A stretch of DNA of 63,628 nt, the filler included, from Nanobdellota archaeon (GTDB taxonomy: Archaea; Nanobdellota; Nanobdellia; B33-G15), in assembly GCA_003660925.1 (NCBI GenBank). It is 8 parts of 8 records of this genome, joined end to end, with 100 filler letters (N's around TTAATTAATTAA, not from the genome) between each part and the next. Parts side by side here need not be neighbours in the genome. Positions count along the whole stretch, not along the records: positions 25,139 to 33,286 come from QMVD01000030.1; 7 more parts are not named here. The stretch is one strand, 5' to 3'. The position numbers and the translations under genes were made by a program. This document shows, piece after piece, positions 27,482 to 31,493 of the stretch. Under the pieces are notes generated by a model. The model did not search any database. It was not told where the DNA came from and saw only the letters and a program-made list of their open reading frames with translations. Each line of letters starts with the position of its first letter. Position 1 is the first letter of the stretch.

Positions 27482-28058
<577 letters not shown>

Positions 28059-28494: not shown

Positions 28495-29727
28495 TTATTT
28501 CAAGAACTCCTTAATCTTAAATGTTACCTTCTCCTCCTCCACCTCTTCTTCCTTCCCGCTCTCCATGTCCTTTACCGTCACCCTTTCCCTCTTCCCAACG
28601 ATGACGACGCATCTTATCTCCCTCTTATCAGCGTACTCTAGTTGTTTCCCTAAACTCCTCTCCATCAAGTTCATTTCCGTGTTTATCCCCTCATCCCTCA
28701 ACTTCTCAGCTATCCTTAAGGCTCTCTCCTTTTGGTTCACCTCTGCCACGAAGACCTTGGCCTTCACTCCGGGGTCCTTGATCATCCCTTCCTTTTTCAT
28801 GATCTCTATGATCCTCTCGAGACCCAACGAGATCCCGGTAGCTGGAATGTCCCTTCCGGAGAACATCCCAATTAACCCATCATATCTCCCGCCTCCGGCG
28901 ATAGAACCGAACTCGCTGGATATCTCGAAGACGGGACCCGTATAATAATCCAAACCTCTTACTAGGGATATGTCAAAGACGTATTTCACCTCGCATTCAT
29001 CCAAGTAGTTGAATAACTCTCTCAGTTCCTTTGACCCTTCGCTCTCTCCAAATCTCCTCTCCACTTCCTTTAAGTCCCTGACCTCCAACAGTTCGATGAT
29101 CTCCCTCACTTTCTTTATCCCTCTCCTCTTCAACTCCTCCTCCACACCCTTCTCCCCGATCTTGTCCAGTTTGTCCATGGCCCTGAAGGCCTCCAAGGGC
29201 TTTTTCACCCCAATCTTCCCCATGATGTAGTTCATCAGCTTCCTGTTGTTTATCCTCACTACTGTATCAAACCCTAACTCCTTAAGCGCCCTGAAAGCAC
29301 AAGCCACTACTTCCGCATCCGCCATCATGCTCTTGCTCCCCACGATGTCCACGTCGCACTGATAGAACTCCCTATACCTCCCCCTCTGAGGATTGTCATA
29401 CCTCCACACCTTATCTATGGCATACCTCTTGAAGGGGAGGGGAAGCTGCGGGTTGCTGGCTATGACCCTCGCTAGGGGGGCGGTTAGGTCGTACCTCAAG
29501 GCGAGCCATCTCCCTCCCCTATCCTGAAACTTGTAAATCAGCTTTTCTTCTTCCCCATACTTTCCCTCCAAGAACTTCGCGTATTCCAGGGCTGGAGTTT
29601 CCGCGGGTTCGAACCCATAGAGCTCGAAGACCCTCTTTATCTTCCCGATCACTTCCTCCCTTATCCTCTTCTCCTTTGGGAGGAAATCCCTCATTCCCTT
29701 TGGAGGCCTCAACTCCATACTCTTCAT
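28495..29727 (-). CDS. hisS: Histidyl-tRNA synthetase
   Basis: PKGMRDF, LRYDLTAP, GRYREFYQCD, RGLDYYTG and GGGRYD; C-terminal anticodon-binding domain present. Confidence 0.97.
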   Translation of the reverse strand: MKSMELRPPKGMRDFLPKEKRIREEVIGKIKRVFELYGFEPAETPALEYAKFLEGKYGEEEKLIYKFQDRGGRWLALRYDLTAPLARVIASNPQLPLPFKRYAIDKVWRYDNPQRGRYREFYQCDVDIVGSKSMMADAEVVACAFRALKELGFDTVVRINNRKLMNYIMGKIGVKKPLEAFRAMDKLDKIGEKGVEEELKRRGIKKVREIIELLEVRDLKEVERRFGESEGSKELRELFNYLDECEVKYVFDISLVRGLDYYTGPVFEISSEFGSIAGGGRYDGLIGMFSGRDIPATGISLGLERIIEIMKKEGMIKDPGVKAKVFVAEVNQKERALRIAEKLRDEGINTEMNLMERSLGKQLEYADKREIRCVVIVGKRERVTVKDMESGKEEEVEEEKVTFKIKEFLK

Positions 29728-30362
29728 ACCTTTCCCCCCCTTTTTACTTTTGCTATGAACTCCCTATCCGGATAGTTCGGGTCAAATATCCCTGTCCTCT
29801 CGAATCCATTCTTCTCTAGGATCCTTATCATGACGGGGTTCTTGGTCCTGCCGAAACACCCTTCCACAACTTTCTCCACGTACTTCTGCCTCTCCCTCAC
29901 CAACATGGTCCCCAATCCCTTCCCTCTGTACTCGTATCGCACTGCTGTATCCATGGCATAGAACACCTCAGCCACCCCTCTCCTTCTGAAGTACTCTGCT
30001 ATCTCCTCCCCATACCTCTCCCTAACTTCCGGCAACTTCAAGAATACGCCCATGGTGAACCCAACTATCTTCTCTCCCTCGTAGAAAGCTAACCCAAAAC
30101 CCCTCTCCAACACTTCTCTCACTTCCTTTTCCACCTCCTCTGGGCTCCAAAATGGCTTCAACTCCCCTCCACATTCGCACTTTAGCCCCATCTCCCTCCA
30201 GTTCTTCCCGAACCTCTCCTCGAGCTCTGGCACTCCGTATTGCCTTCCGCATGAGGCGCACTTCATGGCCTCATTCCAAGGAGGATAGCCCCATGTCTCC
30301 GGTTCGCAGTAAAGCCTCACGACGTCTTTCCCCACCCTTTCATCCATCCTCACTAACCTCAT
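29724..30362 (-). CDS. GNAT acetyltransferase with an inserted Zn-ribbon
   Basis: Acetyl-CoA motif AVRYEYRGKGLG, EKNGF, and PPWNE followed by CASC...CECG. Confidence 0.85.
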   Translation of the reverse strand: MRLVRMDERVGKDVVRLYCEPETWGYPPWNEAMKCASCGRQYGVPELEERFGKNWREMGLKCECGGELKPFWSPEEVEKEVREVLERGFGLAFYEGEKIVGFTMGVFLKLPEVRERYGEEIAEYFRRRGVAEVFYAMDTAVRYEYRGKGLGTMLVRERQKYVEKVVEGCFGRTKNPVMIRILEKNGFERTGIFDPNYPDREFIAKVKRGGKV

Positions 30363-30376
30363 GAACATCACCACCC

Positions 30377-30724
30377 TCAAGCAAGTCTTCGAGTCCCACC
30401 TTCACCACCTCCCGCCGTTTTTGGGTCGGCGCTGGGATTCGAACCCAGGCCTGGGGCTCCACAGGCCCCTGTGCTACCACCTACACCACGCCGACCATCA
30501 AGGAGCCTGACGACGAGCTTTCCCAAATCCGTTAAAGAACCTCCTGAAACGAGTCCTAATTCCCTCAACCTGGTATAATTCCACCTCACAGTAGATTCGG
30601 GCAGAGAGAACTTCTCACACACGGAAGAGATGGCCCTAGTCTGGTTCTCAAAATCCCTTTCGCTCAGCTCTTTGAGGATGAGGATCTGTTTTCGATTGAG
30701 AGCCCTAACTAGAAGGAGCTTCAA
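30377..30724 (-). CDS. wHTH transcriptional regulator whose 3' part reads through tRNA-His
   Basis: LPESTVRWNYTRLRELGLV...LTDLGKLV in the first ~75 aa; no stop before the tRNA. Confidence 0.75.
   Translation of the reverse strand: MKLLLVRALNRKQILILKELSERDFENQTRAISSVCEKFSLPESTVRWNYTRLRELGLVSGGSLTDLGKLVVRLLDGRRGVGGSTGACGAPGLGSNPSADPKTAGGGEGGTRRLA
30424..30496 (-). tRNA. tRNA-His (GTG) with encoded G-1 and C73
   Basis: G-GTCGGCG/CGCCGAC-C acceptor, GGGGC-CT GTG GA-GCCCC anticodon arm, CTGGG-TTCGAAT-CCCAG T arm. Confidence 0.93.
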
Positions 30725-30773
30725 GCCCTCGATTTGTGTTGGAGTCGCATCACCGACACCTAATCTTCCACTT

Positions 30774-31145
30774 TTACTCAGGACTTAAATACTTTTTCCG
30801 CGAATTTTCTCGCACTCTTTCGGTGAGGATCATCTTCAGGGGCTTCAAACGATACGGAGCCCTCCCCCTTGTGAAGGTTATGACGTTTGCTCCCAATTTC
30901 TTCAAAGTTTCTGGCACTCTTTGGTAATAGGGACAGTTTTCCTCTCCGATTGGGATGAAGTAGATTTTCTTTCCCGTATTGTAAAATCCCGTAACGTATG
31001 CCGCGAACTCTAACCCGCTATTTGAGACGCGTCTTACTTCGTTTCCCTTCACTGCCACTGCCTCATCCCCTAGTTCCTTCAGTTCTCTTATCAATATCTC
31101 TTCTAGCCCCCGGGCGGAATGGACTAATCTCCCTTCATCGTCCAA
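30774..31145 (-). CDS. Hypothetical protein
   Basis: 123-aa ORF overlapping the stop of the upstream ORF. Confidence 0.55.
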   Translation of the reverse strand: MDDEGRLVHSARGLEEILIRELKELGDEAVAVKGNEVRRVSNSGLEFAAYVTGFYNTGKKIYFIPIGEENCPYYQRVPETLKKLGANVITFTRGRAPYRLKPLKMILTERVRENSRKKYLSPE

Positions 31146-31401
31146 AAGGTCCGTGATGTTCGGGGGTGAGACCTTTTCTCTTAAGAACCTCCATTAAGGA
31201 ATCGTAGATATCGGAGGCTGGCACCCTTAGCGTACCTCCCTTCCTCCTTATAGTCAGAGAAGGAATTTGGACGAGAGGCCTTTCCTCCTCTTCTATCTTT
31301 TCTATTTCAAACCCTTCTATGAGAAGGGCGTACTCTGTGAAGGAGATGGGGACTTCCAACTTCATCCTTCGTAAGAGAGTTCTCAGTTGTTTCATGTTCA
31401 T
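31135..31401 (-). CDS. Hypothetical protein
   Basis: ATG at 31401 with a TTATATAA element upstream. Confidence 0.55.
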   Translation of the reverse strand: MNMKQLRTLLRRMKLEVPISFTEYALLIEGFEIEKIEEEERPLVQIPSLTIRRKGGTLRVPASDIYDSLMEVLKRKGLTPEHHGPFGR

Positions 31402-31493
31402 GGAGACCAAAATCTCACTCCGCTTTATATAATTATCTGAGAGGAGTGACACCCAATCAAAAGGTTTTAAACCCCTCAGGCCCAAGTTAATTC

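Follow-up and report, generated by a model that had tools for sequence, protein, structure and literature searches.

Why should an archaeal gene for a winged-helix (wHTH) protein run without a stop codon through a complete tRNA-His, at the head of a unit that also carries a GNAT acetyltransferase and the cognate synthetase, and what would turn such a unit on? The question was raised by a locus in a stretch of 63,628 nucleotides (the window), in which eight contigs are joined by N runs. All parts of the locus lie on the minus strand, on contig G000:C30, where G000 denotes the window's archaeal genome (0.67 Mb, 88% complete). Three other genomes of the same family are labelled G001, G002 and G003 (the last 72% complete); L-numbers denote homolog loci and X-numbers denote runs with contigs. 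Comparison of the sequences suggests that the regulator appears to be made only when a ribosome stalls at a His codon and slips out of frame. The features of the locus are collected in Table 1.

Table 1. Features of the wHTH–tRNA-His–GNAT–hisS locus, from upstream to downstream; positions are those of the window.
Feature	Position	Strand	Basis or remark
Imperfect palindrome, candidate wHTH binding site	30799..30814	-	Just 5′ of BRE/TATA
BRE/TATA-like predicted promoter of the whole unit	30784..30798	-	Sequence; conserved in G001 and G003
Leader: SD-like GGTGAT, ATG 30750, 9 codons, stop TGA 30723-30721	30721..30754	-	Out of wHTH frame
Proposed -1 shift site C-CAA-CAC	30736..30742	-	P-site Gln codon, A-site His codon
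Tar/TK0271-like winged-helix domain, -1 frame	30497..30741	-	NF053753 32.1 bits, E 9.9e-8
wHTH run-on tail, ~40 codons to stop 30377	30377..30496	-	Post-tRNA part not conserved in G003
tRNA-His(GUG), G-1 at 30496, C73, nested in wHTH frame	30423..30496	-	ARAGORN, Rfam 63.6 bits
Second out-of-frame leader, strong SD, GTG 30399	30340..30413	-	Directly 3′ of tRNA
GTT-CAT, candidate His-dependent +1 entry into GNAT	30366-30361	-	In second leader
GNAT acetyltransferase	29724..30362	-	Pfam; family travels with His cassettes
hisS	28495..29727	-	TIGR00442 412 bits; sole copy found in genome

The architecture proposed in the initial annotation was confirmed. In the sequence, the wHTH frame is free of stops through tRNA-His(GUG) at 30495-30423, a tRNA called by both ARAGORN and Rfam, and ends at TGA 30379-30377, and the tRNA combined the GUG anticodon, G-1 and C73 with an Rfam score above threshold. 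The sequence likewise bore out the GNAT ATG at 30362 and the ATGA overlap between GNAT and hisS at 29727-29724. The run-on from the wHTH into the tRNA was identical in G001, G003 and L208, and the whole tRNA inside the ORF, the arrangement of the selC-in-selB type, is conserved in G000 and these three. A contig of run X2 covered the stretch with 0 differences, and X2 is possibly the source of this DNA. The run-on is not an assembly artefact. HisG was absent from searches of the four family genomes (71-93% complete). Two other observations concern the surroundings. Two ORFs at 30774-31485 (31135-31485 and 30774-31145) correspond to one 229-codon ORF in G001, and contigs in X5 were one base short at 31162; the split probably reflects an indel between strains or a fault in the assembly. 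The tRNA at 27968-28058, whose call overlaps the 3′ end of an opposite-strand ORF, was read by ARAGORN as Ile(TAT) without intron search and as Ala(TGC) plus a 17-nt intron with it.

The 5′ end of the gene was found to differ from what had been assumed. The earlier start, TTG 30724, is probably not real, because G003 has CTG and L207 has TTA in its place and because an SD-led ATG at 30750, 26 nt upstream and in another frame, is conserved. In the alignment of G000, G001 and G003 this ATG was followed by two variable codons and then by CAA-CAC, and the leader GGTGAT was complementary to the 16S 3′ end of G000. The passage from start to product thus involves a conserved transition of frame together with a conserved internal SD-like stimulator, as in programmed frameshifting; no canonical X-XXY-YYZ slippery heptamer was found at the site, which reads C-CAA-CAC. 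The same site was present in 24 His loci, and the upstream G-A-T at -10 to -8 was retained in 23-24 of these 24, the site itself having served as the search key. The SD-like motif also serves as the start in most loci, and the ATG is missing in L221 and L223. Two other routes into the wHTH frame were rejected. The window would allow a hop of +5 from CAA onto the following CAA, but fewer than half of the 24 His loci possess this second CAA; entry by two +1 shifts would run into an early stop in G003. Upstream of the leader, the palindrome to which the wHTH would bind has 5 of 8 dyad pairs in the window, with a family mean of 5.0 versus 3.7 for shuffled sequences (n = 174). G003 has a perfect palindrome of different letters at the same place, and no other relevant occurrence was found when G000 was searched with the promoter palindrome.

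Homologs were collected from 401 genomes of the class, 401 of the phylum, 80 named loci, 91 Thermococcaceae, 301 genomes of the phylum holding the Micrarchaeota locus L133, and 3 metagenome contigs. A single-protein database search returned 1 relative, and a profile search returned 407 proteins and 870 clusters at 50% identity, without genomic context. The C-terminus of one database homolog (P0011) resembles, by eye, a translated tRNA with a GCA anticodon. After 13 weak, 5′-truncated, mis-anchored or duplicate loci had been left out, 191 loci remained; C-CAA stood in the leader frame of 139, as against 25 and 48 for the two other frames. Close kin are numerous in this set, and the counts are descriptive. 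No in-frame ATG, GTG or TTG preceded the domain in 48 of the 139.

Two classes of cassette were distinguished. The -1 class, which includes the window, has the form GTGATG-N-N-C-CAA-codon. In the +1 class, an SD-like motif is usually separated by 3 nt from a P codon such as CCC, CTT or CGG, and the sensed codon follows. At CCC-TGG in 6 loci, the +1 shift falls within the conserved domain and splits it, and six loci (L040, L042, L066, L069, L070, L079) would need two +1 shifts in series, both at the cognate codon. Between the SD-like motif and the P codon, the distance is 7 nt in -1 loci and, by eye, 3 nt in many +1 loci. This trend has the direction known from prfB and dnaX, for which the accessible text of PMC5009743 gives 3 nt with +1 shifts and 9-14 nt with -1 shifts, and the 7 nt is shorter than the bacterial 9-14. 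At least four homologs are plainly in frame (L068, L084, L168, L239), the cassette reading is ambiguous in five (L037, L038, L057, L071, L072), and both His and Tyr codons are present in L063/L064. A weakly resolved tree implies a single change in shift direction and no fewer than 14 changes of the sensed amino acid.

Several observations on the collection stand by themselves. Eleven +1 loci without the usual SD-like motif (L044, L055, L056, L058, L059, L061, L063, L064, L067, L073, L080) share GCTGC and GCAGC motifs 5′ of the shift, possibly an RNA stem or a nascent-peptide stimulator. Three paralogs per genome occur in G596 (L133, L214 and L224; His/Pro/Thr), in G981 (L220, L230 and L236; His/Pro/Ser) and in G001 (L085, L078 and L084; His, Phe-or-Trp and none). 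About 40 Bathyarchaeia-type loci (L108-L164) share a highly uniform Tyr cassette, and no amino-acid gene was seen in their vicinity. Of 79 named loci, 39 lie beside none of six probes and 11 beside a PAS histidine kinase; these 11 belong to the Bathyarchaeia-type Tyr cassettes. Deacylases of the M20 or aspartoacylase type are repeatedly carried by His, Trp and Tyr cassettes, in many cases together with a GNAT (L210, L220, L221, L223, L227, L232, L237, L209, L219, L078, L162) and possibly serve amino-acid salvage.

Among the 56 loci flanked by a gene specific for one amino acid (a synthetase, a tRNA or a pathway gene), the codon at the frame change agreed with that neighbour in 55, across 9 amino acids; loci without an amino-acid-specific neighbour stand outside this count. 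When the loci were collapsed at 50% identity, 32 of 33 units matched (permutation mean 5.3, maximum 15 in 100,000), and the fixed C-CAA rule alone gave 24 matches in 25. The first set (n = 47) comprised 31 matches, 9 cassettes without a specific neighbour, 5 unclear loci and 2 in frame. Its pairs were His-hisS, Pro-proS, Phe-pheST or tRNA-Phe, Tyr-tyrS, Trp-trpS, Gly-glyS and Thr-thrS, with Tyr/Phe and DAHP synthase as a pathway pair. The labels of this set, +1 loci included, were assigned by eye with the adjacent tRNAs in view; hence, two blind sets were used, with predictions written beforehand. The 36 blind predictions gave 16 matches, 1 mismatch and 19 uninformative loci without a specific neighbour. 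Set 1 contributed 4 matches out of 6 (2 uninformative), and set 2 contributed 12 out of 30 (hisS 4, hisG 2, TrpB-like 2, proS 2, thrS 1, serS 1), the remainder being the mismatch and 17 uninformative loci. The mismatch, L220, has a His cassette with leuS 2 kb downstream, third in line. Extension of 20 unresolved loci by up to 9 kb revealed no matching synthetase among the probes, a set without CysRS; a GluRS-like gene lies ~7.5 kb from L240. The match between codon and neighbour, which is strong and held up in the blind sets, shows sensing, and not by itself a shift. As an ungated comparison, hisS of G002 (L271) has no wHTH directly upstream, and a tRNA-His lies ~5 kb away.

A frameshift switch operated by a hungry codon is the best explanation for these patterns, with a probability of roughly 0.8 on comparative grounds. 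Ribosomes would start at the out-of-frame ATG 30750. As long as charged tRNA-His is plentiful, CAC would be read, the stop would be reached six codons later, and no regulator would be made. When His-tRNA is scarce, the ribosome would pause with CAC in its A site and its 16S 3′ end paired to the upstream GGTGAT, shift by -1 and make the wHTH. The wHTH would then activate its own promoter and raise the supply of spare tRNA-His, GNAT and HisRS, and restored charging of His-tRNA would close the switch. The frameshift itself, beyond a mere stall, is very probable, because 48 loci have no in-frame start and the shift splits the domain in others. Re-pairing of the Gln-tRNA from CAA to CCA is a mildly favoured path, against which counts its middle mismatch. 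Activation rather than repression by the wHTH is likely by analogy with Tar. Against the switch stand the many cassettes without a matching neighbour (19 of 36 in the blind sets and the ~40 Bathyarchaeia-type Tyr cassettes), the mismatch at L220, the two codons of L063/L064, the in-frame and ambiguous homologs, the short 7-nt spacing and, for Tar, the in-frame ATG of TK0271 and the release by erythrose 4-phosphate.

The leader could also stall at His and act through re-initiation at the TTG or through transcription-translation coupling, with no change of frame; this reading, which the codon-neighbour match would also suit in that it shows sensing and not the shift itself, is unlikely. Re-initiation is possible in the window, where the leader stop overlaps the TTG (TTGA), and the overlap is kept in G001 and L208. 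The TTG is replaced in G003 and L207, however, and the leader stop follows at distances of 6 to 28 codons, tied to no start. Moreover, the 48 of 139 loci without an in-frame start speak against this reading, and the mid-domain and double shifts require a joined product.

The initial annotation had placed the control step in the nested tRNA, whose excision would leave a non-stop message and detach GNAT-hisS, while ribosomes crossing it would block its folding. As the control step itself, this is very improbable, for it supplies no amino-acid-specific signal. Stop-less run-on into a cognate tRNA recurs, in 12 loci and with 4 tRNA types: His (G000, G001, G003, L208), Pro (L045, anticodon by eye; ARAGORN called Ser), Tyr (L066, L069, L070, L076, L081, L087, of which L066 and L087 by eye only, with no Rfam call) and Phe (L040, with a stop inside the tRNA). 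The run-on tRNA starts near the end of the last helix, except in the two racemase fusions. These facts favour excision control, as do the bacterial precedent (PMC8124441, in its accessible part) and the presence of pelota in G000 and of RNase P RNA in 3 of the 4 family genomes, the 88%-complete G000 being the one in which it was not found. The 12 loci also support the earlier view of an amino-acid-specific feedback unit whose homologs pair the regulator with its cognate tRNA and synthetase. Excision as the sensing step, however, was unsupported: most homologs have no nested tRNA, and the cognate codon stands at the 5′ frame change. The cognate tRNA is separate from the wHTH in L042, L120, L170 and L174, and an in-frame paralog on G000:C3 has a stop and a tRNA-Pro with its own TATA box.

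Deletions in close relatives bear on the same point. GNAT is deleted in L208 and in a contig of X5; GNAT and the tRNA core are deleted in L207 and, with the same joint, in a contig of X4; the 5′ His cassette is retained in L207 and L208. Because the close relative L207 lost the tRNA core and kept the cassette, the nested tRNA looks like cargo rather than a sensor. In L207 (422-1940) the wHTH lies in frame with HisRS, and a frameshift would yield a fusion protein. The earlier observation that the nested tRNA lacks its own promoter held: its only TATA-like box is at -41, whereas the genome scan, with 3 long-intron calls set aside, lists 38 tRNA genes, of which 32 have one at -25 to -35. The second tRNA-His for which a check had been suggested was found at G000:C15:4056-4129, free-standing and with its own TATA box, and also in G001; this housekeeping copy speaks against excision control. 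G002 has one free-standing tRNA-His, and in the 72%-complete G003 the nested copy was the only one found. With no usual TATA box and a free-standing tRNA-His elsewhere, the nested gene would be an extra copy under the wHTH promoter, that is, regulated cargo. Outside the window, a second tRNA-Asn(GTT) at G000:C8:17890-17964 has no TATA box at -30, and the ORF directly 3′ of it resembles gatC.

Under the frameshift switch, the overlap of wHTH and tRNA would be cheap, since most ribosomes would stop in the leader and few would reach the tRNA. Excision of the tRNA is predicted, probably as a secondary effect, and may shorten the life of the message and limit the activator burst, as proposed for selB-selC; as a second layer of control it is a tentative proposal at somewhat below even odds. 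Completion of a stop by polyadenylation after excision was rejected, as an in-frame T is left only in L069 and L070 among the nested loci (by eye). In L081 and L087 the wHTH is fused to a domain of ~230 residues resembling Asp/Glu racemase (by eye), followed by tRNA-Tyr, and L110 has a free racemase gene in a Tyr unit. Gene decay, with an indel at the 5′ end and an overlap arisen by chance in a compact genome, for which the small genome and the neighbouring ORF split here and whole in G001 might speak, has a negligible chance and is already refuted by the comparative data, in which the out-of-frame cassette is retained across genera and phyla with its codon changing with the neighbour, unless all those loci are artefacts.

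A second gate may lie at the GNAT. The His codon of the second leader is placed one base before the GNAT ATG, and its frame and codon are retained in G001 and G003. A separate out-of-frame His leader also precedes the GNAT in L155 and in L232, and the four inspected CCC-TGG loci have GNATs that are out of frame at the cognate Trp codon. In the window this gate is a weaker candidate, because the GNAT also has an in-frame ATG with its own SD. The window GNAT aligned with the first downstream gene of 8 of the 10 His loci tried; furthermore, among 7 His loci of set 2 without hisS or hisG nearby, 5 carry the GNAT family of the window. Its model (pLDDT 94) gave arylalkylamine N-acetyltransferases as the best Foldseek matches (TM ~0.6), a fold that appears nearest to small-amine acetyltransferases.

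The wHTH scored 91 bits against family profile A2, of which it is itself a member. Its score against NF053753 lay below the 130-bit cut-off, which makes it a distant relative and not a member of the TK0271/Tar family. Its neighbours are tRNA-His, GNAT and hisS in place of an aro operon, and a different, imperfect palindrome occupies the position of the TGGACA-N8-TGTCCA box, the same place as the Tar box described in the accessible part of PMC6737238. Shared with Tar are the wider protein family, the place as first gene of an amino-acid operon and the palindrome 5′ of BRE/TATA; unlike Tar, the window protein scores under the family cut-off and stands first in a His unit. In the accessible text of PMC6737238, Tar starts at an internal ATG and a frameshift is nowhere described. 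Lack of any one aromatic amino acid is reported there to induce all three operons; Tar was not released from DNA by the amino acids, sensing being left open, and was released by erythrose 4-phosphate in vitro. Tar shares the -1 cassette geometry, which is visible in the primers of that paper: by eye, three of its TK0271 primers agree with the L088 cassettes for Trp and Tyr. The annotated in-frame ATG of TK0271 lies inside the Trp cassette and could yield ungated Tar.

Phe, Trp or Tyr cassettes were present in 30 of the 30 Thermococcaceae loci examined, 27 of which lead into a transketolase gene, as happens in the aro operon. Five leaders (L176, L177, L179, L181, L188) combine Phe, Trp and Tyr cassettes, each of which would lead into the wHTH frame. 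The aromatic cassettes could, on sequence grounds, answer the published question of how Tar senses. If so, the sensing of aromatic lack by Tar becomes directly testable in the genetically tractable T. kodakarensis. A wider reading, to which we give somewhat better than even odds, is that archaea possess a modular sensor in which hungry-codon frameshifts gate activators for at least nine amino acids and are retuned by one codon. Cassettes in parallel would form an OR gate (Phe/Trp/Tyr in Tar), those in series a sharper switch (double +1), the GNAT would be gated again, and the nested tRNA would act as a shut-off by cutting the activator message.

The literature search, which covered few subscription journals and PMC3711429 without its supplementary cluster tables, returned no published description of such a device. 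If true, it would be a natural and useful starvation-induced frameshift, of which the 2016 review PMC5009743, in its accessible part, lists no known example making a starvation-specific product, and it would join the few cellular frameshifts described for archaea (PMC8211752, accessible part). It would also give archaea a general means to tune tRNA synthetase and amino-acid genes, imply that the 5′ ends of these genes are mis-annotated and offer amino-acid reporters programmable by one codon. At synthetase and biosynthesis operons, tRNA charging is also sensed by means of a cognate codon in leader-peptide attenuation and in T-box riboswitches, which control termination in cis; the codon of the window, in contrast, would gate the synthesis of a trans-acting regulator. 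The proposed switch resembles the +1 shift of prfB and the -1 shift of dnaX, as far as described in the accessible parts of PMC5009743 and PMC3711429, in its internal SD-like stimulator, its slow A site and its spacing, short with +1 and longer with -1, and several +1 homologs share the CTT P codon with prfB. Unlike prfB and dnaX, it would have in the A site a sense codon chosen per operon, shortage of an aminoacyl-tRNA as the signal and a transcription factor as the product, and it has no X-XXY-YYZ heptamer. The hungry-codon frameshifting of starved E. coli, treated as error in the accessible text of PMC5009743, likewise arises from the lack of one aminoacyl-tRNA. The nesting itself is most like that of tRNA-Sec (selC) in selB, where, according to the accessible part of PMC8124441, a whole tRNA occupies the 3′ end of the ORF, remnants persist in some relatives, and processing is proposed, as a hypothesis, to leave a non-stop mRNA. 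Unlike the wHTH of the window, selB encodes a bacterial elongation factor and has no frameshift gate.
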